Shown: piece by piece, positions 15,546-33,900 of the stretch
Layout of the letters: each line of letters opens with the position of its first letter
How positions within the stretch are numbered: position 1 is the first letter of the stretch
Assembly: GCA_051251915.1 (NCBI GenBank)
Contig: JBPOGF010000018.1
Span: forward strand, 1 to 64,000
DNA length: 64,000 bases
Reading direction: 5' to 3'
DNA from: Akkermansiaceae bacterium
GTDB taxonomy: Bacteria > Verrucomicrobiota > Verrucomicrobiia > Verrucomicrobiales > Akkermansiaceae
Program-made: the position numbers and the translations under genes
The notes under the pieces: generated by a model
Databases searched by the model: none
What the model was told of the DNA's origin: nothing
Seen by the model: only the letters and a program-made list of their open reading frames with translations

Positions 15546-16532
15546 ATGAAAATAAAATATAATAAGTCACTCCTGTCATTAGTCATAGCAGCTGTGACAG
15601 TAACACAGGCCAATGCTCAGTCCTTAGATGCACTGTATGAATATAATCTGATCACTAAGGGTGATCTTGATATTCAGTCAGAGGTAGAAGGTAGAACTCT
15701 AGTTGGTGGAAACTATGTAGACGGTGGAACCTCTAACTTTGGTATTCATCTTAACCAAAGCCCGTCAACGATATCGCCAACACTTACTGTGGTAGGTGAG
15801 GTTATTACAGGTAGCGTTATCAATGTAACAGGCGGAAGCGTCGTAGTAGGGGGCTCAGCAAACGGAAGAAAGTTTAATATCCAGAACTCACAAAATGTTT
15901 CAGGCCTGACAGCTACTGATAATACTGGGATTAGTTTTACTGAAACTTTCAATCAATTAGATCTAGCTAGTCAACAGCTAGCTACTTTTGCTACTAACTC
16001 AGGGAATACATACTCAACTGATGGTGGTGGTAATGTAATTCTGAATATAGCGTCTATCACAGATGGTGTTACGGTCTTTAATGTTGATGAGTCAATATTC
16101 GGATATGCAGACGGAGTAACAGGTGGCGTAAATGGTAGGCAACTAAATTTAAGTGGTTTAGATTACTCAGGTTCGACAGTTGTAATAAACGTGTCTAGTG
16201 GTACTGATGGTATTATTAATACGCTTCATTCCCAAGGATCTGGCTTTATGAACGGCTTCACTGATAATGTAATATTCAACTTCTACGATGCTAAAGAAGT
16301 GAACATTAACAACCAATTCTTTGGAAGTATCTTGGCTCCTAATGCCCTAATTGATACTCAGGGTAAAGCTACTATTGATGGATCTGTTTATGCTAATTCT
16401 TTGGTGTCAACTAATGAGATTCATGATCCCCTTTTTGGAGGATCTATCAAGTTTGAAACAGTTCCTGAGCCGTCTTCAACACTCTTACTAGGTCTTGGAG
16501 GTCTAGGTTTACTAGCTCGCCGTAAGAGGTAA
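15546..16532 (+). CDS. Choice-of-anchor A domain PEP-CTERM surface protein
   Basis: Motifs SEVEGRTLVGGN, VIFNFYDA, GSILAPNA, EIH; C-terminal VPEPSS-TM-RRKR. Confidence 0.85.
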   Translation: MKIKYNKSLLSLVIAAVTVTQANAQSLDALYEYNLITKGDLDIQSEVEGRTLVGGNYVDGGTSNFGIHLNQSPSTISPTLTVVGEVITGSVINVTGGSVVVGGSANGRKFNIQNSQNVSGLTATDNTGISFTETFNQLDLASQQLATFATNSGNTYSTDGGGNVILNIASITDGVTVFNVDESIFGYADGVTGGVNGRQLNLSGLDYSGSTVVINVSSGTDGIINTLHSQGSGFMNGFTDNVIFNFYDAKEVNINNQFFGSILAPNALIDTQGKATIDGSVYANSLVSTNEIHDPLFGGSIKFETVPEPSSTLLLGLGGLGLLARRKR

Positions 16533-16798: not shown

Positions 16799-19700
16799 TT
16801 AGAGGGAGGGGTAGAAGGATTCTGCCCAGGCGGAGAGTTGGGTGGAGAAGAGGAGGATGGCGGCTAGGGCGAAGAAGAGGATGGCGGTGAGGAGTTTGAT
16901 CTTGGAGGTGTGGTTCTTTTGGAAGTTGATGAGGGCGTTGCTCTTCATGCCTCCCATGGCTAGGGCGAAGATGATGATGAGGGGGAGGACGAATGCTAGG
17001 TTGTAGATGACTAGCATGGTGACGGCGTCTTGGTTGCCTTCGTTTATTTTGTAGATGATGGGGGCGTAGACTTGGCCGGTGCAGGCGAGTTCTAGGACGG
17101 AGATGGCGATGCCGGAGCCGAAGGCGGCGAGGATGTAGAGGCTGGATTTGGAGTTTTCTCGGATGACGCTGCGGATTTTGTTTTTGAGGAAGGAGGGGAG
17201 CTGGAGGGTCATGTCTTGTAGTCTGCCTTGGCGGGCGCGCCACCAGTCGCGTAGGGAGAGGATGGCTACGAGGAGGGAGAAGCCGGCGAAGATGTAGTTT
17301 AGGGCTGAGCGGATCCATTGGTAGCTGGTGTTGGCGGTGAGCCATTCGAGCGCTTTGGAGAAGAGGAGGCCGAAGGATAGGTAGGAGAGGAATACGGCGA
17401 GGATGAAGGCGAAGCCAACGAAGAAGATTTCTTTGGCGGAGCGCTTGGCGATGGTGAGGTAGGAGAGGAAGAAGATGATGGTGGCGAAGGCGCAGGGGTT
17501 GATGCCATCTAGGAGGCCGCCGGCGATGACGATGGGGAGGGTGAGGTCGCTGTAGGATTTGTCTACGGCTTGCTTGGCGAGCTGGATGTCTGCTTCTTTT
17601 TCTAGTGAGTGCCAGTCTGGCTGCTCTGGGGTGGCCATGGTGTCTGCGAGGAGCTTGGCGAGGTCACGGGGGTTGATGTATGTGCCTACTAGGTATCCGT
17701 GGGAGGTGTAGATGGCGGGGGCTTTGCCGATTTGGTTGGCTGGGACTTGGAGTTTGTTAGAGAGGTGGTTGTTGAGGAGGAGGCCGTCTGAGCTGTCAAC
17801 TAGTTGTCTGTTGATTTCTAGGAGTGGGAAGTCTTGCTTGAGGTTCTTGAGGTAAGTTTCTACTTCGAGGCATTTTTTGCAGCCGGTTTTCTCGAAGAAG
17901 ATGATGACGAGTTTTTCGCGTTTGGCTGTATTTTGATCATCTTCTGGGGTGGTGAGGTGTTGTGGTTCTTCGGATGCGTCTGAGGTTTTGGCTAGGGCGT
18001 TGAAGGTGGTGAAGCCGGCGCCGGAGTTTTTGTCGCTGGTGGAGTCGGTGCCGAAGTGTTGGTTGATTCTTGAGTGATAGCTTTTTGATATGCGGTTGAA
18101 GTCTACGTAGGCGAGTAGTGGGCGCATGCCTTTGCCCATTCGTGCGTAGTTGGACTGGACGTAGTTTGAGAGTCTGTAGGTGACATCGGATTCTTTTCCT
18201 TGTTGGGGGATGTGGTTGATGAATCTCTGGAGGTTGATGGTTCTGGAGTGTGAGAGGAGGGTGAACATGGCCTCGAATCTGTTTTTGGGTGAGGTGTCTG
18301 ACTTTGCCATTTCCTGAAGTGCTGCTTCGATTTTTTCAGAGATGCGGCGGTTGTTTTTGTTAGAGTAGTAGGAGCTGTCTCCTCTGGTCTCGGTGTCTGA
18401 GAAGATGAAGTTCCATGCGGAGCCTGCGCGGGTGTGGCAGTCTGCGAGTGCGGCTCTGACATCTGGGTGTGGGTCTGCTAGGAGTTTGCTGATGTTTTCT
18501 TCATACCAAGAGGAGTTGATGGTGCCGAGGGTGTGCCAGGCGGCGCGTCTGACCCAGGGGTTTATGTTGGTGGTGAATGATGAGATGAGTTCGTTGTCTG
18601 AGCTGGTTGCCATTTTCCTGAGGAGGACTAGGCTGAGGATTTTGGTTTGGTCGTTGAGCTCTGGTTTGTTGAGTTGTTCGGTGCACCATTGGTGAAACAT
18701 GGTGCGGGTGCTGGCGTCGCCAGCGGCATTGTCTGTGGAGTAGCTGTAGGCATCTGCGCCGGTGATTTTGGTGTCTTTTTGGAGGAGGGCGTTTAGTGCG
18801 GAGTGGATGAGGACTTTGTTGTTTTCGTTGCGGAAGGCGGCGGAGATGGCTTTGGTGCGGATGTCTTTGGAGGGGTCTTGGAGTAGGGCTAGGATGATGG
18901 GGACGGATTTTTGTTGTCTGGGGTTGTAGAGTGCTTCTGCTAGGGCGGCGCGTTTGCTGATGGGCATTTCGCTGACGTTGCCATCGATGAGGGCGAGGCC
19001 TCGTTTGTCGCCAGCTTTGGTGAGGAGGAGGGCAATTTTGAAGGATTGCTCGGTGCTGGGTTGTGATTTAGCGAGGTCGTAGATGGTGTTGACGAGGTTG
19101 GTGATTCCGCCGGTGGAGGTGGCGGCGTTACTGGAGTCGATGGAGTCTGGGAGGACGGGCTTGCCGCCGGGGAGGAGGAAGTGATTGTAGAGGGCATCTA
19201 GGCTGGTGTTGGTGGGTCTGTTAGATGCGGTGGAGTTAGTGGTGGTGTTATTTAGGTAGCGTAGTGCGGGGCTGGTGCTGTTGTTGGCGGGGATGTCTAG
19301 GCTGTTGAGGATGGCGGAAATTTTCTCGGTGTTCTTGGATGTGATGGCGTCTGTTAGAGTGTTGGCGACCATGGCTTGCTTGGTTTTATCTTCATCGTCG
19401 GATAGGTATCTGAGGGCGGCGCAGGCGATGTCGATGTCGTTTGAGTTGGCGAAATGGATGAGTGCGTGGAGGGTGTTGGGAGTAGATGCTGAGAAGGCTT
19501 TGAGGGATGGGATGATGATGTCTGCGTCTCTGGTTTTGAGGTGGTCTAGGAGGTCAGTTGGTAGGGTGCTGTCTAGGCTGATGATGGCTTCTGTTAGTGA
19601 GGGAACCATGTCGTCATTTGACTTGTAGAGCTTCATGAGGAGGGGCTTGGCTTCTGTGAGCTTGAGGGAGACGGCGGTTTTGATGGCGTTGTGTCTGACG

Positions 19701-20890
19701 AATTCATCGGCATCATTTTCTAGTAGGTCTAGGATGTCTGGTGCGGCTTCGCGGACGGTCATTTTAGCGGCGTGTTCTAGGGCGGCTATTCTGACTCTCC
19801 AGCGGCTGTCTTTGAGTAGTTTGACAATTTCTAGGGAGTCATTTTTGGAGGGGTTTTTCTTAGTGCCGATTGAAGGCATTAGTCCGTTAGAGTCGTCTAC
19901 TCCCATGAGTGTTCCCATGGCTCCGATGGAGGCGATGACGAGGTCTTCGTCTGGGTGGGTGAGGAATGATCTGACGATTTCAAGGGATTTGGGGTCGCTG
20001 ATGTCTTTGAGGTTTTTGAGGGCGACGTGGATGACATTGATGTCGGTTTCGCGTTTGAGTTGGTCTGTGATGAAGGGGAGGACTTGGACACCGCCTACGG
20101 TGAGGATGGCGTCTACGGCTGTTTCGCGGGTGAGCGGGTCTTGGTCATCTACGTAGTCGCGGATGATGGGGATGGTGATGACGCCGAGGTTTTTGAGGCC
20201 GGCGAGGGCGATGAGTTTTTGGTCGCGGTTTCCTTTGACGAGGTCGCGGGCTAGTTGGCTGGCGTTGTTTTGGGCGGTTTTGATGAGGACTAGTTCGTAC
20301 TGAGCTTGTTTGAGCTGGGCGATTTTGGCGGCGTTTAGGGTGGGGTTCTTGAGGATGAATTGTTGGATGGCGGCGACGGCGTTGAAGTTGTCGCCTTCTA
20401 ACATGCGGGTGGCTCTGGTGATTTTGGAGCGGTTGTCTGAGATGAGTTGTTGGATGTAGGTTTGGATTTTTTCTGGGCTGAGGCTTGCTGATTTTTGCTC
20501 GGCGAGGAGGGAGGTGTTGTTTGCCCAGGTGGTCCACATTTCTAGTGGTTCTTGGTTGGTGTCATCGGTGGGGTTGAGCCAGGCGTTGTAGCTGTAGTCG
20601 CCGCCTGAGGCGTCTTCTAGGAGTTCGATGGCACCTAGTCTGGTGGAGAGTTGGGGGTGGGTGAGGAGGGTGACGAGTTGCTTTTTGGGGAAGTGTTTGC
20701 GTTTTTTGAGGGCGGTTTCTATGTGGGGGCGTTTTTCTGTGTCGGCTAGGTTGGTCATTGCTTGGGCCCATTGCTCTGGGGTGGCGCTATCTGATGTGAT
20801 GGCGTCTAGGAGCTGTTCGTCAGCTTGGGCATAGGTGTGAGTGATGCTCAGGGTGATGAGGGCGCAGGCGATGATGAGGAAGCGTTTCAC
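16799..20890 (-). CDS. Exported HEAT-repeat protein fused to a thioredoxin-like CxxC domain and a CcdA/DsbD-type TM domain
   Basis: Signal peptide and HEAT-like repeats (DSRWRVRIAAL, DPHPDVRAAL), then GCKKC, then a TM domain with DGINPCAF and LELACTGQVY. Confidence 0.75.
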   Translation of the reverse strand: MKRFLIIACALITLSITHTYAQADEQLLDAITSDSATPEQWAQAMTNLADTEKRPHIETALKKRKHFPKKQLVTLLTHPQLSTRLGAIELLEDASGGDYSYNAWLNPTDDTNQEPLEMWTTWANNTSLLAEQKSASLSPEKIQTYIQQLISDNRSKITRATRMLEGDNFNAVAAIQQFILKNPTLNAAKIAQLKQAQYELVLIKTAQNNASQLARDLVKGNRDQKLIALAGLKNLGVITIPIIRDYVDDQDPLTRETAVDAILTVGGVQVLPFITDQLKRETDINVIHVALKNLKDISDPKSLEIVRSFLTHPDEDLVIASIGAMGTLMGVDDSNGLMPSIGTKKNPSKNDSLEIVKLLKDSRWRVRIAALEHAAKMTVREAAPDILDLLENDADEFVRHNAIKTAVSLKLTEAKPLLMKLYKSNDDMVPSLTEAIISLDSTLPTDLLDHLKTRDADIIIPSLKAFSASTPNTLHALIHFANSNDIDIACAALRYLSDDEDKTKQAMVANTLTDAITSKNTEKISAILNSLDIPANNSTSPALRYLNNTTTNSTASNRPTNTSLDALYNHFLLPGGKPVLPDSIDSSNAATSTGGITNLVNTIYDLAKSQPSTEQSFKIALLLTKAGDKRGLALIDGNVSEMPISKRAALAEALYNPRQQKSVPIILALLQDPSKDIRTKAISAAFRNENNKVLIHSALNALLQKDTKITGADAYSYSTDNAAGDASTRTMFHQWCTEQLNKPELNDQTKILSLVLLRKMATSSDNELISSFTTNINPWVRRAAWHTLGTINSSWYEENISKLLADPHPDVRAALADCHTRAGSAWNFIFSDTETRGDSSYYSNKNNRRISEKIEAALQEMAKSDTSPKNRFEAMFTLLSHSRTINLQRFINHIPQQGKESDVTYRLSNYVQSNYARMGKGMRPLLAYVDFNRISKSYHSRINQHFGTDSTSDKNSGAGFTTFNALAKTSDASEEPQHLTTPEDDQNTAKREKLVIIFFEKTGCKKCLEVETYLKNLKQDFPLLEINRQLVDSSDGLLLNNHLSNKLQVPANQIGKAPAIYTSHGYLVGTYINPRDLAKLLADTMATPEQPDWHSLEKEADIQLAKQAVDKSYSDLTLPIVIAGGLLDGINPCAFATIIFFLSYLTIAKRSAKEIFFVGFAFILAVFLSYLSFGLLFSKALEWLTANTSYQWIRSALNYIFAGFSLLVAILSLRDWWRARQGRLQDMTLQLPSFLKNKIRSVIRENSKSSLYILAAFGSGIAISVLELACTGQVYAPIIYKINEGNQDAVTMLVIYNLAFVLPLIIIFALAMGGMKSNALINFQKNHTSKIKLLTAILFFALAAILLFSTQLSAWAESFYPSL

Positions 20891-20923
20891 GGTGACGGTG
20901 ACGGTGACGGTGTGATGGTTTTC

Positions 20924-21589
20924 TTAGTGGAGTAGCGCGTAGGCGACGATGTTTGCGTTGATTCGAACCGAATCATTGATTTCATCTCCGCCTCAACAAC
21001 AACAGCCTTCGGTGTTTGGGGTGTCGTTTAGGCCATCTGCGGTGTAGCAGACGACGAGTTTGTCGTTGAGGGTGATGCCTTGGAGGGTGGAGGTTTTGCC
21101 GGATTTACATTTTAGTTCTTTGATGGTGAAGATGGTTTTGAAGAGGGCGTGATCTTGCGGGATGTCTTTTAGGGTGTCTTTATCGAAGATGCGCTTGATT
21201 TCGCGGCTGAATGCGGTGGCCCAGGTCTCATCTGAGCAGGAAGGGGATGCTAGGAGGAAGCCGCCGTTGTTGAGGTATTTCTTGAGGTTTTCTCGCTCTT
21301 TGGTGGTGAGGGAGAAGTCTCCGGTGCCGGTCATGATGACGAAGGGGAACTTGAAGAGTTCGTCAGAAGACATTTTGACGGCTTTGAACCGGCGCTCTGT
21401 GGTGATACTGGTTTTTTGCTGGACGGTGGTTAGGAATTCATCGCTGAAGCACTCGGATGTTTTGGTGCCTGCGTAGATGAGGTTGGCGCATTGGACTGCG
21501 CCTTCTTTGGCGGATGCTGCGCTGATAAGGATCGCCGAAAGGGTGGTTAGGGCGAGGTGTTTTGTTAGATTTATGATTTTTGTTTTCAT
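20924..21589 (-). CDS. DUF4159 family protein, probable selenoprotein (in-frame TGA at 20995-20993)
   Basis: Motifs FPFVIMTG and YLNNGGFLLA. After EGCCC-TGA the frame continues as GGDEINDSVRINANIVAYALLH-TAA, which resembles the usual DUF4159 C-terminal helix. Confidence 0.75.
20959..20975 (-). promoter_or_regulatory. Putative bacterial SECIS hairpin
   Basis: TGATTCG-GTT-CGAATCA: perfect 7-bp stem starting 18 nt after the in-frame UGA, with a G-leading loop. Confidence 0.6.
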
Positions 21590-21690: not shown

Positions 21691-24525
21691 TTATTCTTTG
21701 GGTTCTGGGTCGGTGTAGAAGCGTTTTATGGCGTCTTTGTATTTGTTTGGGATGTTGGTGCGGGTTGCTTGGGAGGTTTGGTTGGTTCTTTTTTGTTTGG
21801 ATTCTATTGAGTTGTTTTCGGAGACTTTGGATTGTTGTTGGGATTGTTTTCCTTTGGGGTTGTTGCTTTGGCTAGAGCCTAGGCCGATGCTGGGGTCGGA
21901 GAATTTGGATCGGTCTGGGCCGAACATGGGGGTGTTTTGGTTGCGGAGTAGTTGGCCGCCGCCACCGGCTCCGGCACCTCCTTCACCTAGTTGACCACCG
22001 CCTCCACCGCCACCGCCTTGGCCTTCTCCTTGGCCTTCGTTTTTGTTGTGGAGGGCATTGAGGAGTTGTTTCATGGTTTCGTGGAGTTCTTCGTTGGTTT
22101 TATCTTTAGGGAGTTTATTTCTTAGGAGTTCTGCGAAGAGGTTATTTTCCATGTCTACTAGTTGCTGCATGAGTGAGTAGGCTAGGAAGGCGTTGTCTGC
22201 GGCGTCGTGGGATTTGCCGAGTTGGGCGGAGAGGGTGACTGTGTCCATGGGGTCTGGGATGTTTAGCTCGGCGAGTTTTTCTAGCCAGATTGTTACGTCT
22301 GCTTGGAGGGGGGCGTGTTCTGGGGGGAGGTCAGCGGCGGCTTTTTTGAGGTCTTTGGCGAATTTGAGGAGGAGGGTTTTGTTTTTCTTTTGGGTGTTGC
22401 CGAGGGTGTTGATGCGTTGGGCGTTTCGGTTTATGCCTTTTTGGAGTTCTTTGGCGATGTTGGTGATGCGGGATGCGATGGATTGTTGGTTGTTGAGGAG
22501 CTTTTTGAAGATGGCGGCTTGTTGTGCGACTTCGCCCCAGCCTTTGAGGTCGTTGGCTTGTTTTTCTAGGCGTTGGGCTTTTTCTAGTGAGGCACCTAGG
22601 CGGTCTGTCATTTCTTTGATCTCTTCTGCATTGGGGATTTCACCGGAATCGAAGCGCATGCCTTGGAGTTGGCCGTGGTTGGTTATGAGTTTTTCGGCGA
22701 TTTCCATGGCGGTATCGGTTAGGGCTGCTTCTAGTTGGTAGGCTTCAAAGTCTTCGCCAATTTTGCGGGCCATGAGGTGTGATGTTAGGTGGGTTTTGAT
22801 GGCTGCATCGCGGGCTTGGTCGAAGTTTTTGGCTTGGTTTTCTTTGTTGGCTTCGTTGAGGGTGCGTAGTGATTTGACGGCGTTTCTGATGGCTTCAGCG
22901 AGGACTTTGTAGCGGATGTTGAATTCTTTGAGTTCGGATGCGTTGCGGAGGCTTTGGGCGTAGTCTTCTTCTGAGATGATCTTGACGCGGACGACGTCTG
23001 ATGAGCCGACGCCGAGGAGGGATGGGTTTTTGTCGTTGGCTTCGATGTAGAATTCTAGGACTTGGTCTTTTTCGACTCCGAGGGATTTGAGGTCTAGGGT
23101 TTGGGTGAAGTCGTATTGTTGGCGGCTGACGGTGTTGGCGAGTTGTTTGGCGCGGTCTCGGAAGCCTACGAGGGTTCTTACGAGGTAGACGGAGTCGATT
23201 TCGTAGTCGTCTTCTACGACTCCTGTTAGAGGGATGTTAGAGCTGGGTGTGGCGAGGACGTATCTGGCTGGGGAGATGAGTTCTGCGGCGGGAGCAAGGT
23301 CGGCGCGGGTGATGACGGCGAACTCTAGGGGTGCGGCTGAGGGGGTGTTGCGGATGTCTTGGATGAGGCAGGAGATGGATGTGCTGTTGTTGGCTGTCCA
23401 GTCGAATGTGACTTGGTTTTGGTTTTGAGTTTGATTTTGGGTGGTTGTGATGGGGTTGGCGTTGATGATGTTTTCTTTGATGGATGCAGTTGATTGATTT
23501 TCTGATTCGGTGATGGGTTTTACGGTGAGTTCTCCACCGGAGAGTGGTCTGTTAGAGGTGATGGAGAGGGAGATGTTAGAGCCGGTGATGACGTTGATTT
23601 CGTTTCCTTCGAGGGGGAATTCTTTGGTGGGTTGTTTGGTGTAGGCTGGTGGGGTGATTTTGATGGTGGCGGTGGTGAACTTGGGCTGGAGGACGACGCT
23701 GATGGAGTGCCATGGGCTGCGTGCTTTTCCGGTGGCGAAGGAGAATTCGATGTCGTGGAGGATGTTGGTGAATTTTTTGGAGAAGGTGTTGGTGGATTCT
23801 TGGTAGGTGTTGATGGTTTCTATTTCTCCTGTGTTTTTGTCTCTGATGTGGCAGATGACTTCTGCGTCTTTTTCTAGTTCTGCGCCGGTGATTTTTACGC
23901 GGACTTGGTTGTCTCCGCCGTAGACGGTGCTGGGGGATTGCTGGGTGATGTTGAAGATGAGGGGTGAGTAGGGTGGGATGTCTTGGGATGGGTGGAGGAG
24001 GCGCTGGGTGACGGTGTCGTAGGCGGCGGGGTGGAGGGAGCGGATTCCGAAGCCGATGGCTAGGAGGGTGAGGAGGGCTAGGGCTGTTAGGGTGATGTTT
24101 TTGAGGGGGATCTTTTTCTTGAGGGGGATGGTGAGGATGTCGGTGGCGGCTGTTTCCTGGGCTTCTTGGCTGAGGTATTGGTGGAGGGGGGTGGGGGATT
24201 CTTGGTGTGAGAGATCGTAGGCTGCGCGGATGTTATTTGATTTGTTAGATGGGTTCAGGTTGGCGGAGTCTGCGAGTGAGGAGAGCTGGGCGTGGGTGGT
24301 TCTGAGGGCTCGGTAGATGGTGTAGAGGGCGGCGAGGATGCCGGCGGCGATGATGAGTTTGTTGAGGATGGATCTGGCGGAGTTGCTGAGTGCCCAGATG
24401 GAGTCTGCTAGGCCGTAGAGGATGATGGTGATGACAAGTATGGCGGCAAGCAGGAGCAGGGTCTTGAGGCAGTAGCCGATGACCCATGTGCGTTTGTAGC
24501 TTGAGATTGCTTGTTGGAAGTTCAT
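21691..24525 (-). CDS. Membrane-anchored Ig-like/coiled-coil protein of the MoxR operon (DUF4175-like)
   Basis: N-terminal TM segments, EDDYEI motif, long helical region, Gly-rich tail ending IPNKYKDAIKRFY. Confidence 0.65.
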   Translation of the reverse strand: MNFQQAISSYKRTWVIGYCLKTLLLLAAILVITIILYGLADSIWALSNSARSILNKLIIAAGILAALYTIYRALRTTHAQLSSLADSANLNPSNKSNNIRAAYDLSHQESPTPLHQYLSQEAQETAATDILTIPLKKKIPLKNITLTALALLTLLAIGFGIRSLHPAAYDTVTQRLLHPSQDIPPYSPLIFNITQQSPSTVYGGDNQVRVKITGAELEKDAEVICHIRDKNTGEIETINTYQESTNTFSKKFTNILHDIEFSFATGKARSPWHSISVVLQPKFTTATIKITPPAYTKQPTKEFPLEGNEINVITGSNISLSITSNRPLSGGELTVKPITESENQSTASIKENIINANPITTTQNQTQNQNQVTFDWTANNSTSISCLIQDIRNTPSAAPLEFAVITRADLAPAAELISPARYVLATPSSNIPLTGVVEDDYEIDSVYLVRTLVGFRDRAKQLANTVSRQQYDFTQTLDLKSLGVEKDQVLEFYIEANDKNPSLLGVGSSDVVRVKIISEEDYAQSLRNASELKEFNIRYKVLAEAIRNAVKSLRTLNEANKENQAKNFDQARDAAIKTHLTSHLMARKIGEDFEAYQLEAALTDTAMEIAEKLITNHGQLQGMRFDSGEIPNAEEIKEMTDRLGASLEKAQRLEKQANDLKGWGEVAQQAAIFKKLLNNQQSIASRITNIAKELQKGINRNAQRINTLGNTQKKNKTLLLKFAKDLKKAAADLPPEHAPLQADVTIWLEKLAELNIPDPMDTVTLSAQLGKSHDAADNAFLAYSLMQQLVDMENNLFAELLRNKLPKDKTNEELHETMKQLLNALHNKNEGQGEGQGGGGGGGGQLGEGGAGAGGGGQLLRNQNTPMFGPDRSKFSDPSIGLGSSQSNNPKGKQSQQQSKVSENNSIESKQKRTNQTSQATRTNIPNKYKDAIKRFYTDPEPKE

Positions 24526-24702: not shown

Positions 24703-26916
24703 TTAGATGAGGCCGTTTCTTCTTCTGAGCCACCAGTCTGCGGAGAGGAGGGTGAGTAGGATGAGTGGGGTGAACCATTTTAGCCAGCTTGATTGCCAGA
24801 TGGTTTCGGTCTTGGAGATTTGGGTGTTTTGGGTGCTGAATTGGTTGGTGATGAAGGTGGGGAATTCTTCAGGGGTAAGGATTTTTCCGCCGGTGGACTC
24901 GCAGAGTTCTTTGAGGAAGGTGGGGTCTGGGTTGAGGTTGTCCATTTCTGTGGGTGGTTTGTTGACGGTGAAATTTATGACGGGGGATGGGGATGAGTCG
25001 TCTGTGATGAGAGTGGCGGTGTAGGAGCCGGGGGTGGTGGGGATGTAGGAGCATTTCCAGGTGGGCTTGCCGGCTGAGGGGGTGGAGGAGGCTGGGGTGA
25101 TGGTGGTGGTGGGGTCTGTGTTAGAATCTAGGCTGGTGATTTCTACTGTTGGTTTGGGTGGGGTGGTGGTTGAGTTGTTAGAGCCACGGTAGCCTAGGGA
25201 GAAGACGATGGGGTCTGTTAGGTTGATGGATTGGTTAGAGGCGTGGAGTGAGTAGTCGTGGCCAGGGAGGAATTCTGAGTAGGCGACGACCCATTGGATG
25301 AGTTGGGTCCAGAATTCTTGGTACATGTTGCCGAGCTCGCGGGCTTCTGGGTAGAAGTCCCATTTCCAGAGGCCGTCAGCATTGACGAGGGCGGTGGCGC
25401 CTTGGCCGTATCTTCTGACGAGGAGGAGGGGGAATTTGGCACGATTTCCGGGGAGGGAGCCTTCTGCGAGGACGCGGGTGAAGGGTTTGACGGAGTCTAC
25501 GTTGTGGGCGTCTTTGAGGGTGGGGAGGTCTTGCCAGACTTGGGAGTCTGGGGCGGGGAGTGCTCTGCCGAATAGGCCTGCGCTTTGGCCGTCTTCGGTG
25601 GGGGCGAGGGCGAAGGTGGAGGTGCTGCCGCTGGCCCAGTTGACGGGTTCGATGGTTTCTAGGGCGGGGAGTCTGCCTGAGTAGGGTTTGCCACGGGAGA
25701 AGAGGATGGCGCCGCCTTGGTCGCGGACGAAGGATTTTAGGGCTTCGATGCGGTCTTCTGTTAGAAAGTATTCTGAGTTTTTGCCGAAGATGATGAGGTC
25801 GTATTTGGAGAGTTTCTCTGGGGTGTCTGGGAAGACGTCATCGCTGGAGGCGGTGGGGTCTGACTGGCCGGAGTCGATTCTGAACCAGCGATCATCTCTG
25901 AGTCTGTGGACGGAGTGGACGTTCATGTGGCCTTGCTGGCGGAGGAGTTGGGCGAGGAATTTGGAGTCCCAGTAGGGGGCGCCTTCGGCGATGAATACGC
26001 GGGTTTTGGTGTGGAGGATGCGGGCGTTTATGAGGCATTGGTTGTTGTCGGTGATTTGCTCGTCTGGTTGTGGGGCGATGCGGAGTTTGTAGGTGGTTGA
26101 TTTCTCTGGTGCTTCGACGGAGAAGGTGTGGGCGATGGTTTTCTGTTCTGCTACCTCTAGTTTCTGGGTGGCGATTTGTTTGCCGGCTGAGTTTTCTAGG
26201 ATGAGGGCGATGGGTTTGGTGGGGAGGTGATGGTTTGTGATGATGGCGGTGATTTGGAGATTTTGTTTGGGGAATGCGGTGATGGTGTTGCGTGTGGTGG
26301 TGAGTTCTAGGTCCTTGCGGAGGACGTCTGCGCCGATGGAGAGGGCGTAGATGGGGGCGTTGTTGGCGCGTGACTGGAGGGCGAGGGTGGAGTTTTTGTT
26401 TAAGGATGTTTGGCGGCCATCGGTGAGGAGGATGATGGCTTCTGGAGAGTCTCCGCTGGCTTGGAGCTGGGTGAAGAGGTTGGAGCCTGCTTGGTGGATG
26501 TTAGAGTGGTTTCCGGTGGTGGTGAGTTGGTCTAGGGAGTCGATGGTTTTTACATCGTCAGAGAAGGAGAAGAGTTGGGTTTGGATGTTGTTGGATTTTG
26601 CTTGGGTGAGGATGAGGTTGGTGAGTTCCTTTGCGGTGTCTGATCTGGAGAGTTCTCCATTGAGGGTGGACATGGATACTGAGTCATCGATCATGATGGG
26701 GTAGATGCGCTCGTGTTGTTCTGATTTATCGACCCATTTGCCGGGGTTTAGCAGGAGGATGGCGATGGCGGAGAGGGCGAGGATGCGGAGGGTGATGAGG
26801 ATTTTACGCAGGCCGGATGGGGCGTGGTGGGTGGAACGCCAGGACGCGTAGATCCCTATTCCTAGTAGGATGACTAGGATTGGTATTAGGATGGGTAGAT
26901 CTAGGACTGGTTTCAT
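24703..26916 (-). CDS. vWA domain plus glutamine-amidotransferase-like membrane protein
   Basis: MIDAS motif DDSVSM, LLTDG, YDLIIFG, RRYGQG, C-terminal WWLRRRNGL. Confidence 0.8.
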   Translation of the reverse strand: MKPVLDLPILIPILVILLGIGIYASWRSTHHAPSGLRKILITLRILALSAIAILLLNPGKWVDKSEQHERIYPIMIDDSVSMSTLNGELSRSDTAKELTNLILTQAKSNNIQTQLFSFSDDVKTIDSLDQLTTTGNHSNIHQAGSNLFTQLQASGDSPEAIILLTDGRQTSLNKNSTLALQSRANNAPIYALSIGADVLRKDLELTTTRNTITAFPKQNLQITAIITNHHLPTKPIALILENSAGKQIATQKLEVAEQKTIAHTFSVEAPEKSTTYKLRIAPQPDEQITDNNQCLINARILHTKTRVFIAEGAPYWDSKFLAQLLRQQGHMNVHSVHRLRDDRWFRIDSGQSDPTASSDDVFPDTPEKLSKYDLIIFGKNSEYFLTEDRIEALKSFVRDQGGAILFSRGKPYSGRLPALETIEPVNWASGSTSTFALAPTEDGQSAGLFGRALPAPDSQVWQDLPTLKDAHNVDSVKPFTRVLAEGSLPGNRAKFPLLLVRRYGQGATALVNADGLWKWDFYPEARELGNMYQEFWTQLIQWVVAYSEFLPGHDYSLHASNQSINLTDPIVFSLGYRGSNNSTTTPPKPTVEITSLDSNTDPTTTITPASSTPSAGKPTWKCSYIPTTPGSYTATLITDDSSPSPVINFTVNKPPTEMDNLNPDPTFLKELCESTGGKILTPEEFPTFITNQFSTQNTQISKTETIWQSSWLKWFTPLILLTLLSADWWLRRRNGLI

Positions 26917-26919
26917 GGG

Positions 26920-28929
26920 TTAGGTGGAAATTTTCTTGGGAGTGGATGCTGCGAGGGCTTCTGCGATGAGGAGGATGAGGGTGGCTCCGACTAGCCATGG
27001 CCAGGTGGGGATGCCTTGGGCGAGGGCTTCTGCTCTGAGTATGTCTTCTTTGTGGGTGGTGTCTCCGGTGGGGATTTCATCTGGGCTGATGAGGGTGAGG
27101 TCTGATTCGCTGGTGGGGAAGTTTACGAATTGTTTGTGTGCGGCGCTGGCTCCGGTGAGCCATTGGTAGATACCGGGGGTGGCTGGGGTTTTGCTTTGGA
27201 GGGAGGTGCCTTGGGCGGTGTTGAAGATTTCGGTTTCTAGTTCTTGGCCGCTGGATGTTTTGAGTTTAAGGGTTTTTGCATCGATATTTTCTGGGACTAG
27301 CCAGTTGACTGGGGTTCCGGGTAGGAGTTCGTTTTGGATGGATGAGTCTGTGGGCTGGATGTTGAGGAGGAGTTCTGCCATGAAGGTGACGAAGGGTTCT
27401 TGGGAGATCCAGTCTGAGTGGTCTGGGTCAAATGTTAGGTTCCAGATGAGGCGTGAGGCGGATGATTTCTTGGTGATGATGATGGCTGGGATGTCGTCTG
27501 TGTAGTTGATGATGGCGGTGTTGTTCCACTGTGTGGGGAGCTCGTAGCGCTGGCGGAATGAGCCTTGGGCTGGGTTGCCGAATTCACCTGAGCTGAAGAT
27601 GGAGAAGACGGCGGCGGATTCTTTTGCCATGGCGGCTTTCCTGCCTTCGGGGTGGGTTGTTAGGTTGAGCTTGGCTTGGACTGGGGCGAGGTCTAGGAGT
27701 TGTTGGAGGGATGTTAGTGGGCAGTTGGTGGCGGGGCTGACGATGATGGATGTTCCGTTGTTAGAGAGTTCTGTCAGGTGGTCTATGTCTTGGCCGTTCC
27801 AGTGGTGGATGAATAGGACATCGCAGACGCCGGGGGTGGGGAGTTGGTCTGATGTGGTGTGGGTGAGCCAGGGGAGGGCGGCGGCTAGGCGGTTGAGGAT
27901 ATTGGTGGTGGAGGTGCTGGATGAATCTGAGATGGAGAGGAGTTTGAGGTTTTCGCGGACGGGGATGATGGTGTGGCGTTCGTCGTCTTCGCGGAACATG
28001 TCTTCTGTTAGGGTGGCGGTGACGGCGACGTCACCGGCGTGGGTGAACTGGGTGATGAATTCTGCTTCGGTTTGGCCGTTGGCGGGGATTTCGATTTGCT
28101 TGGATTGTCTGCCGCCGCCGGCGTTGAGGTAGATGGTGGTGGATTTGTCACTGTCTGAGTGGTTTTTGATGCGGGCGGTGATGGCTACGTTTTGGGAGCT
28201 GACTGGTGATGGGGGGAAGGTGGTGAGGGACTCGATGGCTATGTTTGGGAGGTTGGTTTTTCCTACGGGGATTTTGGTGAATTTGATGGATTCAGGGATG
28301 AAGATTTCTGCGTTTTGCCAGGGGAGTTTTTGGAAGTCTGAGATGAGGATGATTTCTCGGTTGCCGGTGACATTTTTGAGTTGGTCGATGGCGAGTTTAA
28401 TGGCTGGGGTGATGGCGCCTTGTTCTGGGGTGTGTTCGGTTTGTTGGAGTTTCTGGATGAGGAAGTCTAGGTTGGGGCCGGGGGCGGGGAAGATGCCGTC
28501 TGGGGTGGCGTTGATCCAGATGATGTTGGCGGCGTCTGGGTTGGTTTTGGAGATGATGGCGGCGGCTTCATTGCAGGCGGTTGAGAAGCGGGTGGTGGAG
28601 CTTTCTGAGGCGGCCATGGAGGCGGACTGGTCGATGATGAAGATGGTGGTTTTGTCTGTGTTGGCGAGTGAGTGGGCGGCTTTGGAGACGAGTAGGGGCT
28701 GGAGGAATGCGAAGATGAGTGCGGCTGCTGCGAGGGTGCGTAGGATGAGGACTAGACGGTCTTTTGGTTTGCGGTAGCGGCTGGATTTCTTGATGATGTT
28801 TTTTAGGAATGTGATGTCTGAGAATTTGTGTTCTGGTGGTCTGCTCTTGGCTAGTAGGTGCACAAGGAATGGGATGATAGCGAGTGCTAGCAGCCAGATG
28901 AGTGCGGGGTTATTTAGGAAGAGGTTCAT
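26920..28929 (-). CDS. BatA-domain plus vWA membrane protein
   Basis: N-terminal BatA motif (IPFLVHLL...F..ITFL), MIDAS motif DQSASM, LISDFQ. Confidence 0.8.
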   Translation of the reverse strand: MNLFLNNPALIWLLALAIIPFLVHLLAKSRPPEHKFSDITFLKNIIKKSSRYRKPKDRLVLILRTLAAAALIFAFLQPLLVSKAAHSLANTDKTTIFIIDQSASMAASESSTTRFSTACNEAAAIISKTNPDAANIIWINATPDGIFPAPGPNLDFLIQKLQQTEHTPEQGAITPAIKLAIDQLKNVTGNREIILISDFQKLPWQNAEIFIPESIKFTKIPVGKTNLPNIAIESLTTFPPSPVSSQNVAITARIKNHSDSDKSTTIYLNAGGGRQSKQIEIPANGQTEAEFITQFTHAGDVAVTATLTEDMFREDDERHTIIPVRENLKLLSISDSSSTSTTNILNRLAAALPWLTHTTSDQLPTPGVCDVLFIHHWNGQDIDHLTELSNNGTSIIVSPATNCPLTSLQQLLDLAPVQAKLNLTTHPEGRKAAMAKESAAVFSIFSSGEFGNPAQGSFRQRYELPTQWNNTAIINYTDDIPAIIITKKSSASRLIWNLTFDPDHSDWISQEPFVTFMAELLLNIQPTDSSIQNELLPGTPVNWLVPENIDAKTLKLKTSSGQELETEIFNTAQGTSLQSKTPATPGIYQWLTGASAAHKQFVNFPTSESDLTLISPDEIPTGDTTHKEDILRAEALAQGIPTWPWLVGATLILLIAEALAASTPKKIST

Positions 28930-29003: not shown

Positions 29004-29885
29004 TTAGTGGGCTAGGCGGTCGAAGAGGGTGAAGTAGGAGTCGGCGGTGGAGGTGAGGGTGTAGTCTACGTGGCGGGAGGCGGCGAGGGTGCGGAGGGCT
29101 TTGGTGTGGCGGTTGAGTTCTGTTTCCCAGGCTTGTTTGATGTTGGTGGTGTGGATGGTGAGGGAGTCTGAGGTTTCCATGTCGTTGAATTTGGCTAGTC
29201 CGTGGTCGGTGATGTTGATTTCTCCAGGGTCTAGGATGTGGAAGAGGTGGATTCTGAAGCCTCGGTGGATGTAGGGGTTGAGGGACTGGAAGATGGCTGA
29301 TGGGTCCTCGAAGAAGTCTGAGAGGATGACGATGGTGCCTTTGTTTTTGATGAGTGGGTGGGCGCGTTTTAGGGAGTCTGCGAGTGAGGTTTGGGAGCCG
29401 GGTTGGTTGGTTTCTAGGAGGTTGAGGATGGCGTGGAGGTGTTTTCTGGTTGAGGATGGGGGGAGGTGGTGGCGGATGTCTTTGTCGAAAATCTGGAGGC
29501 CGACGCGGTCCTTTTTGCTGACGACTAGCCAGGCGAGGCAGGCGGCGAAGAATGAGGCGTATTCTAGTTTGTTGAGTTTGGCTTTGGCTTTGTCTTGGAA
29601 TCCCATGGATGCTGAGGAGTCGACGAAGATGGTGCATTCGAGGTTGGTTTCTTGCTCGAAGGTCTTGAGGTAGTGTCGGTCTGAGCGGGCGAAGACTCTC
29701 CAGTCGACCATGGAGGGGTCGTCTCCGGGGGTGTATTGGCGGTATTCGTGGAATTCTGTTGAGGAGCCGCGTTGTTTTGAGCGGTGTCTGCCTGAGAGGT
29801 ATCCTTCCACGAGAGCCTTAGCGCCGAACTCGTAGTTGCGGAGCTTGTTGATGTCTTCTGGTTTGAGGTATTTGAAGTTACTCAT
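29004..29885 (-). CDS. DUF58 family protein
   Basis: GRHRSKQRGSSTEFHEYRQYTPGDD...VDWRVFAR, DSSASM, ILSDFF. Confidence 0.9.
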   Translation of the reverse strand: MSNFKYLKPEDINKLRNYEFGAKALVEGYLSGRHRSKQRGSSTEFHEYRQYTPGDDPSMVDWRVFARSDRHYLKTFEQETNLECTIFVDSSASMGFQDKAKAKLNKLEYASFFAACLAWLVVSKKDRVGLQIFDKDIRHHLPPSSTRKHLHAILNLLETNQPGSQTSLADSLKRAHPLIKNKGTIVILSDFFEDPSAIFQSLNPYIHRGFRIHLFHILDPGEINITDHGLAKFNDMETSDSLTIHTTNIKQAWETELNRHTKALRTLAASRHVDYTLTSTADSYFTLFDRLAH

Positions 29886-29897
29886 GGGGTGAGGATT

Positions 29898-30893
29898 TTA
29901 GGCGAGTAATTTGGTGATGATGTCGTCTTCTGTGATGCCTTCTCCGGTGGCGTTGTAGTTGGGGGTGATGCGGTGGCGGAGGATGGGGAGGGCTGCGTCG
30001 TTTAGTTCATCGATGGATGCGGCGGGTTTTCCTCTGAGGAGGGCGAGTGCGCGGACGGCTTTGGCGAGGCACTGGGATGCGCGTGGGCCGGCGCCGTAGG
30101 AGATGTAGTTGTTTACGAAGTCTGAGGCGTGTTCTGAGCCTGGGCGGGTGGAGTGGGTGAGCTTGAGGATGGCTTTGATGACATTTTCTGGGAGAGGGAC
30201 TTCGATGGTGGCGTCTTGGAGGGCGATGACTGCTGCTGTGTCTAGGATGGGGTTGGCTGTGGGGAGGTCTTTGCCTGTGGTGAGGTTGACAATTTTTTCT
30301 TCTTCTTCGATGGATGGGTAGCCGATTTTGATGTTGTAGAAGAAGCGGTCGAGTTGGGCTTCTGGGAGTGGGTAGGTGCCTTCGTGCTCGATGGGGTTCT
30401 GGGTGGCGAAGACGATGAAGGGTTCTGCGAGTTTGCGGGTTTTGCCGGCGGTGGTGACTTGTTTTTCCTGCATGGCTTCTAACAGAGCGGCTTGGGTCTT
30501 GGGTGGGGTTCTGTTTATTTCATCTGCTAGGATGAGGTTGGAGAAGATGGGGCCTTCGGTGAACTCGAATGCGCGGTTGCCAGTGGAGTCTGTTTGGAGG
30601 ATTTCTGAGCCGATGATGTCGGCTGGCATGAGGTCTGGGGTGAACTGGATGCGCTGGAATTTAAGCCCGAGAATGTGGCCTAGGGTGGATGCTAGTAGTG
30701 TCTTGGCGAGTCCGGGGACACCTTCGATGAGGCAGTGGCCTTTGCAGAGGAGTGAGACGAGCATTTGCTCTACGACTTGGTCTTGGCCGACTATGACGCG
30801 GGCGGTTTCTTTGCGGATGTTAGAGACTTGGGTCTGGATGTGCTGCCACTGCTCGGCAGGGGCTGAGGTGGGTGTGGGATTAGTAGTGGTCAT
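29898..30893 (-). CDS. MoxR family AAA+ ATPase
   Basis: GVPGLAKT, RIQFTPDLMP, LADEINRTPPKTQ, ATQNPIE, LDRF. The start is placed at ATG 30893 to avoid overlap with the upstream gene. Confidence 0.93.
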   Translation of the reverse strand: MTTTNPTPTSAPAEQWQHIQTQVSNIRKETARVIVGQDQVVEQMLVSLLCKGHCLIEGVPGLAKTLLASTLGHILGLKFQRIQFTPDLMPADIIGSEILQTDSTGNRAFEFTEGPIFSNLILADEINRTPPKTQAALLEAMQEKQVTTAGKTRKLAEPFIVFATQNPIEHEGTYPLPEAQLDRFFYNIKIGYPSIEEEEKIVNLTTGKDLPTANPILDTAAVIALQDATIEVPLPENVIKAILKLTHSTRPGSEHASDFVNNYISYGAGPRASQCLAKAVRALALLRGKPAASIDELNDAALPILRHRITPNYNATGEGITEDDIITKLLA

Positions 30894-30906
30894 GGATTGT
30901 GAGTGG

Positions 30907-33900
30907 TTATTGTTCGTGCATGTATTGTAGATACTGGGCTTTGTATTGGTTGAGTTGTTCGACAGAGAAGTCATTAAAGCGTTCACGGTATTCTTCTAGT
31001 GCTGGTTGCAAGGAGATGATTTCGTTGATGAGTTTCTCGCGATGATCTTTGGTATTAGCTTGGGCGGCGAGGGTTTTTTCTAGTCCAGGTTTGTTGGTGG
31101 CGGTTAATAGGAGGTTGTTTTGAGTTGTGAAGGTTGCTAATTTATCGGCTGGGGGTTGAGTGGAATTGGTGAAGATGAGTGAGGTTGCTTCATCGGTGTT
31201 GTGGTCGTGTGCGGTGATGGCTGAGAAGGCGTCGATTTTGTCAGCGAGGAGGTCTTTTTGGGCGGCTTTTATTTCTTCTGATGCACTGGAGGATTGGTTG
31301 TAGATGCTAAGTTGTAGGCCTGGGAGTGTTCTTGGCTGGGTGATGACTATGGAGATGTTCGTGAAAGCGTCTGCATTTTCGAGGAGGATGGTGGCGAGTT
31401 GTTTGTAGGTGTCGGTATTTTTTTTCTTACCAATGATGGGCTGGAAGATGGATGTGAGTTGTTCTAGGTTTTCTGGTTGGTACATTGGGTCTACGGAACC
31501 GATACCCTGGATGAAGTCTTGCCCTTTGGTGAAGATGGCGTCTGCTTCTTCGCTGTCAGTTAGTTTGATTCTTTCTGAGTGGTTGAAGGCGAGGAGGGTT
31601 TGTCTTAGTTGTGCTGGGGCGACGGCATTGAGTGATTTTAGCATTTCAGTGAGGCGTTCTTCATTGATGGAATCTGGGTCTGGTAGCGGGGAGAGGGGGG
31701 TGCCGGCTAGGATGAGTTTGGAGCGTTCTCTGATGAGTTTATCGATGGTGTCTGGGCCGAGGGTTTCGAGTGATTCGTATTGCCATGCTGTGCGGTCAGG
31801 GTTGGTGAATTTGTCGAGGAGCATGCCGGCGACTGAGGAGATTTTTGAGCCATGGATATGGAGGTCTGAGAAGAGTAATTTCTCCCAAGCGGTCTGCTGT
31901 TCTGGGGTTAGGGTGGGTTTATTGGGATCAACGGTCTCCTTTTTGGCTTCTTGTGCTTTGTGGTTGCTGAGCATGGTGGATAGAGCTGCGCGGAGGTTTG
32001 CTCCGCTTGGGGATGATGAGGTTTTTCCGTTGCTGTAGGATGATTCTAGAAGGGTGGTGAGGATGTGCATTTGATCGATGGTTTCCTCTTTGTTTGCCGC
32101 GATCTGGATGAGTGGGTTGATGTATTCTGAGAGGGCTTGGCCTTCGTAGGCTGTGGAGAGTAGCTCCATGATTTGTTTTGCTTTGGCGTCTTTTTTGGCG
32201 AGGTCTGTTAGGAGTTTTTGTGGGTCGATCTCTTCGGTGTAGCTGGTGAGTGACTCGATGAATTTTTCTGCTCCTCCTGCATTTCTGACGCTGTAGTGGA
32301 TGGAGTTTGTGTTGGTGGTTTTTTCTGCGTTGATGAGGATGTCTTTGTACTTGGCGAGGAAATCTTTGGCTTTTGATTTGCGTTTTTTTACGTAGTATTT
32401 GACGATGTCTGCTTGGTAGCTGGGGCGTTGGTGGGTGAGGATGGTTTTTTCTAACAGTAATCTGCTTTCTGCTGTGTCTTGGTCCATCATGGACTGGATG
32501 AGGGCGGCAGTGTGAGACTGATTTCCTAATTCTAGGTAGTGGGTGATGAGGGCGGTTTTGGTGTCATTGCGGTGTTTTTTCCACCATTCGATAGCTAATG
32601 ACTTCAGCTGGGCGGGGGTCATTGCTGCTAGCATTTGGGAGTTGTGAGGGAGTGCTGACTGGATGATGCTGGTGGCTTTGGTGCCTCGTGTGGGAGGTTT
32701 AGCTAAGGCTTGGTATGCGGCTTGGGGGGATATGAAGTCATCATTGTAATAGTAGTTGGAGTAGTGAGAGTTGCCGTCGTTGTCGGCTTGGGGCATGAGT
32801 GTCTCGTCGCCTATCATGGAGGCAATGGCGATGAATCCGTCCATGCCATGATGAGTGAGTTGGATGAAGGGTGGGGCTTTAGGGTGTTTTTGGGTGGGGT
32901 TGATGACGAATAGATTGTTGGCGCTGTAGTATTCGTCTGTGTTTGCTGTGGGTTTGACTGTGGTATCGATGAGTTTCTGGATCTCTGGGCTGAAGGTGTG
33001 GCCTGGGATGGATGGTGTGGGGACGGGGAGATTTTTTACTCTGCTGAGGACTTGTGGGATGAGTATTTCTAGGCCGGGTTGGTTAGCCCATCCTCTGGGG
33101 TATTTCTTCTGGAGCGTGATAAGTGAGGTATGGAATTCTGACCAGTTTGTATTCTGAGTGAATTTAGCATGGACTGAATTGTATTCTCTGTTGGCTAGGT
33201 TGTTGATTAGGGTATTGATTATTTTTTCTGGGTCTTGTTGTTTGAGGAAGAGAGTTTTGATGAGCTTTGTGGCTTCTTTTTGGTGGCCGGCTTGGTGTGC
33301 TAGGACAGCAAAGCCTAGGGCTGCTGAGAATGTGGATTCTGAGTTGTATCCGAAAGGATCATGGGTTGTGTCGGCTTGAGCCCAGGTGAGTATGGATATT
33401 AGATCTTGGGATAGATCCGCAGTTGATATGGGGCCCCGGGTTGAGGTTTGTTGGGCTTGATTGGAGGTGGGTTTGAGGGTGGAGGGGAAGTAGTCGATTT
33501 CACAGCCTCCTAGGTAGATGAATCTGTCTGGTTTAGTTTTGTCTTTGGATGGGATATGGAATCCGTTGCCTTTGAGTTTTGGGATGTTGTCATCGTGGCT
33601 AGGGAAGCCGAATCCTGAGCAGGTCCATTCTAGGTTGCGGTCATTGACTTTCACGTATTTGATTCCTTCGGTATCTTTTATGTTAGGGAAGCCGATTTTG
33701 AGGAGTTCATCTATGGCCGGCGTGTAGTCTATGATGCGGTTGGGGGATTTTTTAGAGGGAGGGGCTGTGTTTGCTTGGCCTAGAGTTGTGGTGGGTATGG
33801 CTGTGATGAGGGTGATGAGGAGGTATAAAGTAGTAGGGATACACAGGGCGAAATTTCTGTGTAATTGAGATAGATACTTTGTGATATCTTTAAAAGATAG

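Follow-up and report, generated by a model that had tools for sequence, protein, structure and literature searches.

An Akkermansiaceae bacterium (assembly GCA_051251915.1) very probably codes for an apparently uncatalogued selenoprotein, whose gene is closed at an in-frame UGA in public calls. The window analyzed here is the whole stretch of 64,000 nucleotides at positions 1 to 64,000 of contig JBPOGF010000018.1. The gene is encoded on its minus strand, and its product belongs to the domain family DUF4159 (PF13709). The UGA (20995-20993) is preceded by three cysteine codons. We assign a probability of about 0.9 to the reading that it encodes selenocysteine (Sec), which would result in a CCCU tract. 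This had been proposed in an initial annotation made from the DNA letters, and it is supported by a Sec/Cys pair among homologues, by a tail beyond the UGA which is under selection, by a covarying hairpin in the mRNA and by a Sec machinery encoded in the genome.

The open reading frame (ORF) from ATG 21616 codes for 207 amino acids and closes at TGA 20995-20993 with the C-terminus ...NTEGCCC. The likelier start is ATG 21589 (MKTKII...), to which the upstream ATG would add nine residues. The public gene call for this protein (P0001; 198 amino acids) also begins with MKTKII and ends at the TGA. The translation bears out that the frame runs on for 22 codons beyond EGCCC-TGA. With TGA translated as U, this extension reads GGDEINDSVRINANIVAYALLH, followed by TAA 20926-20924. 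An open extension of 22 codons is unremarkable by itself. In the read-through product, residues 59-228 match positions 21-202 of the 202 positions of the Pfam DUF4159 profile (E-value 1.5e-30; 106.7 bits, gathering threshold 25.9). Because this match reaches the final profile position, the extension provides the end of the DUF4159 domain. The gene is present in a single copy, so that with a stop at the TGA the genome would have no version of it that includes the last helix. The TGA is not an assembly error. The region is identical, with zero differing letters, in contigs of three public seawater-metagenome runs, two of which may be the source of this assembly, while the third (depth 3.9) is another sample from the same study.

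Homologues were collected from several sets. Sampled genomes are designated by G-numbers (G000 being this genome), public protein calls by P-numbers and loci by L-numbers. The family sample consists of 61 genomes from the same family of the Genome Taxonomy Database (GTDB), and 24 of them have a match with an E-value of at most 0.001. Among the 15 best family orthologues (E-value at most 7e-54), this codon is TGA, the only in-frame TGA of the gene, in seven (G000, G049, G011, G026, G042, G001 and G017) and Cys in the other eight. In G049, an additional TAA sits upstream of the start. Homology runs to the final residue in all 15 orthologues. The TGA forms translate to ...TEGCCC-U-GG[DN]EI..SVR[IV]NANI.AYA[LI]LH-stop, the Cys forms to ...[EK]GCCC-C-GG..., and both end in the same way. 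In a genome from the same genus (G075), the Cys form is accompanied by another copy that is more distant. In the order sample (201 genomes), an orthologue with an E-value of at most 1e-30 was found in 39 genomes, and two of these carry the TGA (G000 and G065, the latter from another GTDB family).

The genome-contig set comprises the best 80 of 513 confirmed loci. The motif is CCCU in six of them (uncultured Rubritalea, unnamed Verrucomicrobiales and one bin labelled Cryomorphaceae) and CCCC in 74 (Luteolibacter, Haloferula, Roseibacillus, Prosthecobacter and Akkermansia, as well as bins labelled Lentisphaerota, Planctomycetota and others). A TGA at any other position of the CCC[U/C] tract was not found in these 80 loci. 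Among the best 120 of 1,396 public protein matches, 18 end with ...GCCC, 101 have an internal CCCCGG and one has CCCWGG. A public call that ends at CCC is also available for a cultured species, Rubritalea squalenifaciens DSM 18772 (P0055). The CCCWGG protein (P0007; 214 amino acids, nine member sequences) has the Sec-type tail DSVRVNAN, and gene calling on its contig probably used a code that assigns TGA to Trp. A scan of metagenome contigs by exact pattern resulted in 14 stretches. Five of these were dropped as unrelated chance matches, and the other nine are further Sec forms.

In total, 17 distinct Sec-form sequences and 71 distinct Cys-form sequences share one alignment column, in which the fourth Cys of CCCC-GG stands opposite the TGA. 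Not included in these numbers are ten Cys-form loci (where the N-terminal motif was missed by the regular expression or which were cut by a contig end), the five unrelated stretches and six exact duplicates. A Cys opposite the TGA in homologues, combined with conservation downstream, had been named beforehand as the comparison to make, and both are present in this set. The initially considered possibilities of a sequencing error or of a nonsense mutation confined to one strain do not apply, because independent assemblies yielded 17 distinct sequences with this TGA.

For the 22 codons that follow the TGA in the 17 Sec forms, the proportions of synonymous (pS) and nonsynonymous (pN) differences are 0.572 and 0.097, respectively, with a pN/pS of 0.17. 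The 120 codons before the motif have a pN/pS of 0.21 in the same sequences. Variable sites in the tail number 7, 2 and 21 at the first, second and third codon positions. All 17 Sec forms end at one position, 13 with TAA and four with TAG. As judged from these substitution patterns, the tail is under purifying selection and is probably translated. A bias in the choice of terminator was dropped as evidence. TGA is the final stop in 0 of 17 Sec forms and in 48 of 71 Cys forms, but this genome closes only 12% of its long frames with TGA.

If the UGA were a true stop, the DUF4159 protein would be truncated after CCC, and the 22 codons would be a decaying remnant. It is in favor of this explanation that public gene callers end the protein there (the 18 calls mentioned above) and that this genome uses TGA as a normal stop. 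However, the tail is open in all 17 distinct sequences and terminates where the Cys forms do. Its changes fall mostly in third codon positions, as expected under purifying selection, and it constitutes the last helix of the fold. In addition, a hairpin with compensatory changes is found beside every TGA (see below). A true stop is therefore very unlikely.

The genome contains selA, selB, selC and selD, the genes that a functional Sec codon should be accompanied by. SelA was identified with 414.7 bits, and the wing domain of SelB was found within an open frame of 651 amino acids. The selD gene (L003, G000:C1:268332-269258, minus strand; 379.4 bits) has one in-frame TGA. The gene for tRNA-Sec (L006, G000:C27:8898-8990, minus strand) has the anticodon UCA and reached 58.8 bits (Rfam gathering threshold 47). 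The selD gene is itself a selenoprotein gene with Sec in the motif VACGGU, and it has a hairpin of 8 base pairs (bp) with a GUC triloop, which is located 33 nucleotides (nt) after the UGA. In the family sample, selA is present in all seven genomes with a TGA form, and it was not found in five of the eight genomes with a Cys form (G004, G009, G037, G045 and G054).

Read-through of the UGA might also proceed without selenium, either by a near-cognate Trp or Cys tRNA or by reassignment of UGA to Trp, with the hairpin merely having a stimulatory effect. The public call P0007, which has W at this codon, fits this explanation, and the abstract of PMC13462651 mentions UGA-to-Trp reassignment for some Verrucomicrobiota. 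However, release factor 2 (RF2) is present in this genome (481 bits, cut-off 370), TGA closes 202 of 1,745 open frames with at least 300 codons, and the sole tRNA-Trp found has the anticodon CCA. For these reasons, UGA is not reassigned. Moreover, relatives invariably have Cys, and never Trp, in the aligned column, selA accompanies the TGA form throughout the family sample, and the triloop resembles that of selD from this genome. Taken together, decoding without selenium is hardly to be expected.

The core hairpin of the candidate Sec insertion sequence (SECIS) has a 7-bp stem and a GUU triloop (TGATTCG-GTT-CGAATCA). The initial annotation had described it as a perfect hairpin; this is confirmed in the sequence, its first base being the 18th after the UGA. 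The spacing is 17 nt from the UGA to the stem and 24 nt from the UGA to the loop. In the consensus quoted in PMC13188914, the apical loop of a bacterial SECIS lies 16-37 nt from the UGA and has a G within its first two positions, in many cases with G or U next to it. The hairpin is in agreement with this consensus, having a small loop that starts with G-U at a distance of 24 nt. Such hairpins are rare in this genome. A GUY-triloop hairpin with at least 6 bp is found 16-37 nt downstream of only six of the 1,577 eligible in-frame TGAs, which are those with at least 80 open codons upstream and at least 15 downstream.

Pairing of the stem was scored in the 17 distinct Sec forms, aligned without gaps (seven pairs, 119 cells), and 95.0% of the cells contain standard pairs. 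Compensatory changes affect pair 31:45 (G-C in 12 sequences, A-U in four) and pair 33:43 (C-G in 11 sequences, U-A in six), and two further stem pairs vary via G-U. As a control, the 3' arm was slid by 1-3 columns, and pairing was then between 10.9% and 51.3%. None of 500 column shuffles matched the observed pairing or the covariation score. With the register unchanged, six or seven of the seven pairs form in each of the 17 Sec forms, compared with one to five in each of the 71 Cys forms. RNAalifold returns the same upper hairpin.

Two extensions of the hairpin were considered and rejected. A single-sequence fold predicts a lower helix (GGNGG/CUCGCC), but its register varies, and the corresponding Gly-Gly and Leu-Ala codons are also kept in Cys forms. 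RNAalifold predicts an outer helix which differs from this one and is devoid of covariation. Thus, only the upper hairpin is claimed.

The stem spans the codons of D/G/N-S-V-R-I/V, and Cys forms have S/A-M/L-E/Q in place of S-V-R. The residue pairs that keep the stem paired are D(GAU)/I(AUC), D(GAC)/V(GUC), G(GGC)/V(GUC) and N(AAC)/V(GUU). The hairpin could be a by-product of these amino acids without SECIS function, with Sec, if any, being inserted via another signal; even though the stem is entirely coding, conserved residues explain part of its conservation and the lower helix from RNAalifold uses codons (Gly-Gly and Leu-Ala) whose conservation extends to Cys forms, this is extremely improbable because S-V-R is confined to TGA forms, Cys forms do not make more than five of the seven pairs, and coupled changes in the two arms (GAU/AUC, GAC/GUC and AAC/GUU) keep the pairing. 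The element would rather be a clear case of a coding-region SECIS that dictates protein sequence, with S-V-R and the coupled pairs D/I, D/V, G/V and N/V being restricted to TGA forms.

Several observations weigh against Sec at this position or against the hairpin as its signal. Two of the five covariation measures lie within the range of the shuffles (double-change pairs in 403 of 500, further pair types in 500 of 500). The 17 Sec-form sequences are close kin, so that the compensatory changes may reflect few events. An Rfam scan of the hairpin region resulted in chance-level matches without a SECIS family and is uninformative. ARAGORN does not call a tRNA-Sec, neither genome-wide nor at the locus matched by Rfam. 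Finally, three genomes (G014, G030 and G051) have selA yet keep Cys. Because selA-bearing genomes may keep Cys, Sec is not required for function of the protein.

The origin of the Sec form was addressed by a tree of the 88 distinct sequences. It was computed with a quick search in IQ-TREE (LG+G4) from the residues ahead of the motif only (165 columns), and its root was not established. The 17 Sec forms are on one side of a branch with a support of 86 in the Shimodaira-Hasegawa-like approximate likelihood ratio test (SH-aLRT), and this clade lies inside a starred group which otherwise consists of Cys forms. The value of 86 falls below the level for a star, so that support for the Sec clade itself is moderate. 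The topology requires no more than one state change and is consistent with Cys having been replaced by Sec once, in a marine lineage related to Rubritalea. The TGA form from G065 is not among the 88 sequences in the tree and may represent a second origin or a transfer.

Additional frames with an in-frame TGA were encountered outside the window. An in-frame TGA followed by a 7-bp hairpin with a GUY triloop was noted in each of two adjacent frames (G000:C26:15311-16165 on the minus strand and G000:C26:13897-15201 on the plus strand). One of the two, which is among the six cases from the genome-wide hairpin scan, codes for a thioredoxin-like motif (WGVNUPPC, judged by eye) and has a hydrophobic N-terminus, the other contains ...FFGDHRSNCUQ.... 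Based on these features, both are probably further selenoprotein genes. In another frame (G000:C1:425606-426163, plus strand), the in-frame TGA (...DEFLQUQALN...) lies 20 nt upstream of a 9-bp hairpin with a GUU triloop, a pairing that may have arisen by chance.

An AlphaFold2 model of the mature protein was computed from an alignment of 15 sequences (mean predicted local distance difference test (pLDDT) 80.5; predicted template modelling score 0.82). A helix is modelled at residues 176-189, which is inside the tail beyond the Sec codon, and it aligns with the C-terminal helix of PDB entry 4i66, the only solved DUF4159 protein. The early impression that the extension resembles the C-terminal helix of DUF4159 proteins thus agrees with both the model and the Pfam match. 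In a Foldseek search, the model matched 4i66 with an E-value of 4e-12 and a template modelling (TM) score of 0.79, and a profile search against PDB gave an E-value of 2.3e-14. ThuA-like and class I glutamine-amidotransferase folds are weak Foldseek matches (E-value about 1e-3, TM score 0.42-0.50). The mature protein has about 194 residues and seven invariant Cys/Sec positions (C3, C16, C87 and C165-C168, A1 numbering). The CCCU loop is part of the block with the lowest confidence (mean pLDDT 56 for residues 161-170). The invariant C87 follows the central strand, where such folds place the nucleophile of their Cys-His-Glu triad, and H116 is also invariant. The structural relative 4i66 (Hoch_4089 from Haliangium ochraceum) shares the fold and the C-terminal helix with this protein, but in the printed alignment, it has neither a CCCC tract nor an equivalent of C87 after the central strand. 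Proteins with CCC[C/U]GG therefore represent a distinct subfamily, which is predicted to be exported. The predicted signal peptide is devoid of a twin-arginine motif, and the N-termini of orthologues are likewise hydrophobic and end with A-x-A ahead of KEG.

The features of the gene and its surroundings are listed in Table 1. The DUF4159 gene is part of an apparent operon, downstream of genes for a MoxR-type ATPase, a DUF58 protein and VWA-domain proteins. For its immediate upstream neighbor (944 amino acids), neither the Pfam nor the NCBIfam scan returned a family, but a homologue of this protein is encoded upstream of the DUF4159 gene in 76 of the 80 genome-contig loci. In its downstream neighbor (1363 amino acids), the repeats match HEAT_2 with an E-value of 2.2e-32, and all 38 aligned sequences retain the GCxxC of the thioredoxin-like domain. 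Inspection of the sequence also shows the motifs ...GINPCAF... and ...ELACTGQ.... Among the 80 loci, the HEAT part is found downstream in 60 and the thioredoxin-like/membrane part in 50. Of the 30 loci without the latter, 14 have less than about 4.1 kilobases (kb) of downstream sequence, and another 14 are from gut Akkermansia with 4.4-6 kb.

Table 1. Features on the minus strand of the window, in the order of transcription
Feature	Position	Strand	Remark
MoxR AAA_3	29898-30986	-	MoxR/Bat-type cassette
DUF58	29004-29885	-	MoxR/Bat-type cassette
BatA and VWA	26920-28929	-	MoxR/Bat-type cassette
VWA	24703-26916	-	MoxR/Bat-type cassette
Upstream gene, 944 amino acids, no Pfam family	21691..24525	-	conserved neighbor
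Predicted selenoprotein gene, DUF4159 (PF13709)	20924..21589	-	read-through; 221-residue precursor, Sec would be residue 199
Predicted Sec-type signal peptide, MKTKIINLTKHLALTTLSAILISAASA	21509..21589	-	cleavage before KEG, (-3,-1) rule
UGA probably read as Sec; fourth position of the CCC[U/C]GG motif	20993..20995	-	homologue alignment
22-codon tail after Sec, GGDEINDSVRINANIVAYALLH	20927..20992	-	holds the last helix of the DUF4159 fold
Candidate SECIS core hairpin, TGATTCG-GTT-CGAATCA, 7-bp stem and GUU triloop	20959..20975	-	perfect stem
Downstream gene, 1363 amino acids: signal peptide, about 960 amino acids of HEAT repeats, thioredoxin-like domain, multi-pass membrane C-terminus	16799..20890	-	

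In these 14 gut Akkermansia loci (L089, L090, L096, L098-L100, L104-L106, L108-L110, L112 and L121), the CCCC form of the DUF4159 protein and the 944-residue gene are kept, and a HEAT, thioredoxin-like or DsbD-like match is absent from the 4.4-6 kb downstream, which sets them apart from most of the other Verrucomicrobiales loci. Two further observations concern the vicinity of the operon end. The 33 nt that separate the stop of the DUF4159 gene from the GTG with which its downstream neighbor starts consist mostly of three tandem copies of GGTGAC (20891-20908 of the window; CACCGT... on the minus strand). Just past the operon, the plus strand (15546-16532 of the window) codes for a PEP-CTERM protein whose adhesive domain is ice-binding-like.

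As to the mechanism, SelB and tRNA-Sec, recruited by the mRNA hairpin (20975-20959), very probably decode the UGA as Sec, and this canonical bacterial route is well supported. Removal of a 27-residue signal peptide from the 221-residue precursor would then result in an exported DUF4159 protein of about 194 residues. This protein would adopt a flavodoxin-like or class-I-glutamine-amidotransferase-like fold, in which the loop G-C-C-C-U-G-G precedes the last helix, and the vicinal Cys-Sec pair on this flexible loop would be the reactive center. A Cys-Sec pair on a flexible loop flanked by Gly suggests either a redox arm (selenenylsulfide/selenol), by analogy with the GCUG arm of animal thioredoxin reductase, or a site for a soft metal or metalloid. 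The thioredoxin-like GCxxC domain of the downstream neighbor could keep the site reduced in the periplasm, being fed via the DsbD/CcdA-like membrane domain. A point against this functional assignment is that the match of the 1363-residue protein to DsbD_TM (17.1 bits) is below the cut-off (27.1).

Sec nearly always stands in for a Cys that is catalytic, redox-active or metal-binding. The switch is therefore a natural label for the functional residue of CCCC-type DUF4159 proteins, and its occurrence at the fourth position would mark the catalytic residue of the CCCC subfamily. It is tempting to speculate that the whole MoxR/Bat-type envelope operon has the CCC[U/C]GG loop as its catalytic output. 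A periplasmic selenol or thiol center, recharged by the neighboring protein, would then reduce or bind an envelope substrate, which may be an oxidised thiol, a peroxide, a soft metal or a metalloid. We consider this to be a tentative and rather doubtful proposal. If it holds true, the Cys-to-Sec switch pinpoints the fourth Cys as the attacking residue, and the Bat-type "aerotolerance" function becomes testable, including the CCCC form from Akkermansia.

The family appears to be new among selenoproteins, in line with the initial annotation, which had not recognized DUF4159 as a described selenoprotein family. Table 1 of PMC13188914 (2026) has no entry for DUF4159, PF13709 or CCCU among its 119 families and subfamilies. 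The NCBIfam scan, which covers the majority of the selenoprotein models that the table cites, gave no match. The nine new families reported in the available parts of the deep-Sep paper (PMC12013277) do not include a DUF4159 family. The main text and one supplement of BSepDB (PMC13326102) do not mention DUF4159, PF13709 or Rubritalea, but this supplement is devoid of any "DUF" and may not list families, which makes the negative a weak one. [quoted passage not shown] The "Hypothetical protein GOS_A" from that study was considered as a possible DUF4159 family and was rejected, as its two sequences in the supplement are unrelated. In the literature outside of subscription journals, and as far as its text was available, DUF4159 is named solely in the 2016 Pfam paper. 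Among the matches listed, none describes CCCU as a protein motif, as judged by title and abstract.

Thus, the CCCU form of DUF4159 is apparently a real, canonical and uncatalogued selenoprotein family, as far as can be concluded from sequence data, and the run of CCC followed by Sec is a motif found in no catalogue compared. With it, the prokaryotic selenoproteome would apparently gain a family. The annotation of Rubritalea-like genomes can be corrected, given that public calls truncate the protein at CCC. The CCCC-type DUF4159 proteins are widespread in Verrucomicrobiales, including gut Akkermansia, and are also found on contigs with the labels Lentisphaerota and Planctomycetota. As a mechanism, the recoding is ordinary, but the switch gives a handle on DUF4159 and on Bat-type operons.

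Each aspect of the system resembles a known one in part. In Bacteroides, Bat (aerotolerance) operons have the same same-strand cassette of MoxR, DUF58, BatA and VWA genes, which is located upstream of the DUF4159 gene here. Unlike a classical Bat operon, the operon in the window additionally codes for the 944-residue protein, the Cys/Sec protein of the DUF4159 family and the protein with HEAT, thioredoxin-like and DsbD-like parts. The fdhF gene from E. coli is the textbook example of an intragenic SECIS, and its SECIS carries a bulged U. Both fdhF and the selD gene of this genome likewise have an in-frame UGA opposite a Cys and a hairpin just downstream, within the coding region, with a loop that starts with G-U. 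In contrast to SECIS elements of the fdhF type, the hairpin described here has a perfect stem with a 3-nt loop and no bulged U, and the family is absent from the lists compared. Adjacent Cys and Sec residues also occur in the predicted "CU"-motif selenoproteins SaoL, HgcA, SaoC, MbdU and KCU-star from Table 1 of PMC13188914, several of which are thought to bind metals or organometals. A sequence relation between these and the DUF4159 protein was not found; the NCBIfam scan, which includes their models, gave no match.

The C-terminal redox arm of animal thioredoxin reductase consists of Gly-Cys-Sec-Gly. Unlike this enzyme, the DUF4159 protein has no flavoprotein domain, is predicted to be exported, and has an internal motif with two more Cys ahead. 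The two share a vicinal Cys-Sec pair that is flanked by Gly on a flexible segment, which hints at a selenenylsulfide shuttle but is an analogy of motifs and not a homology.

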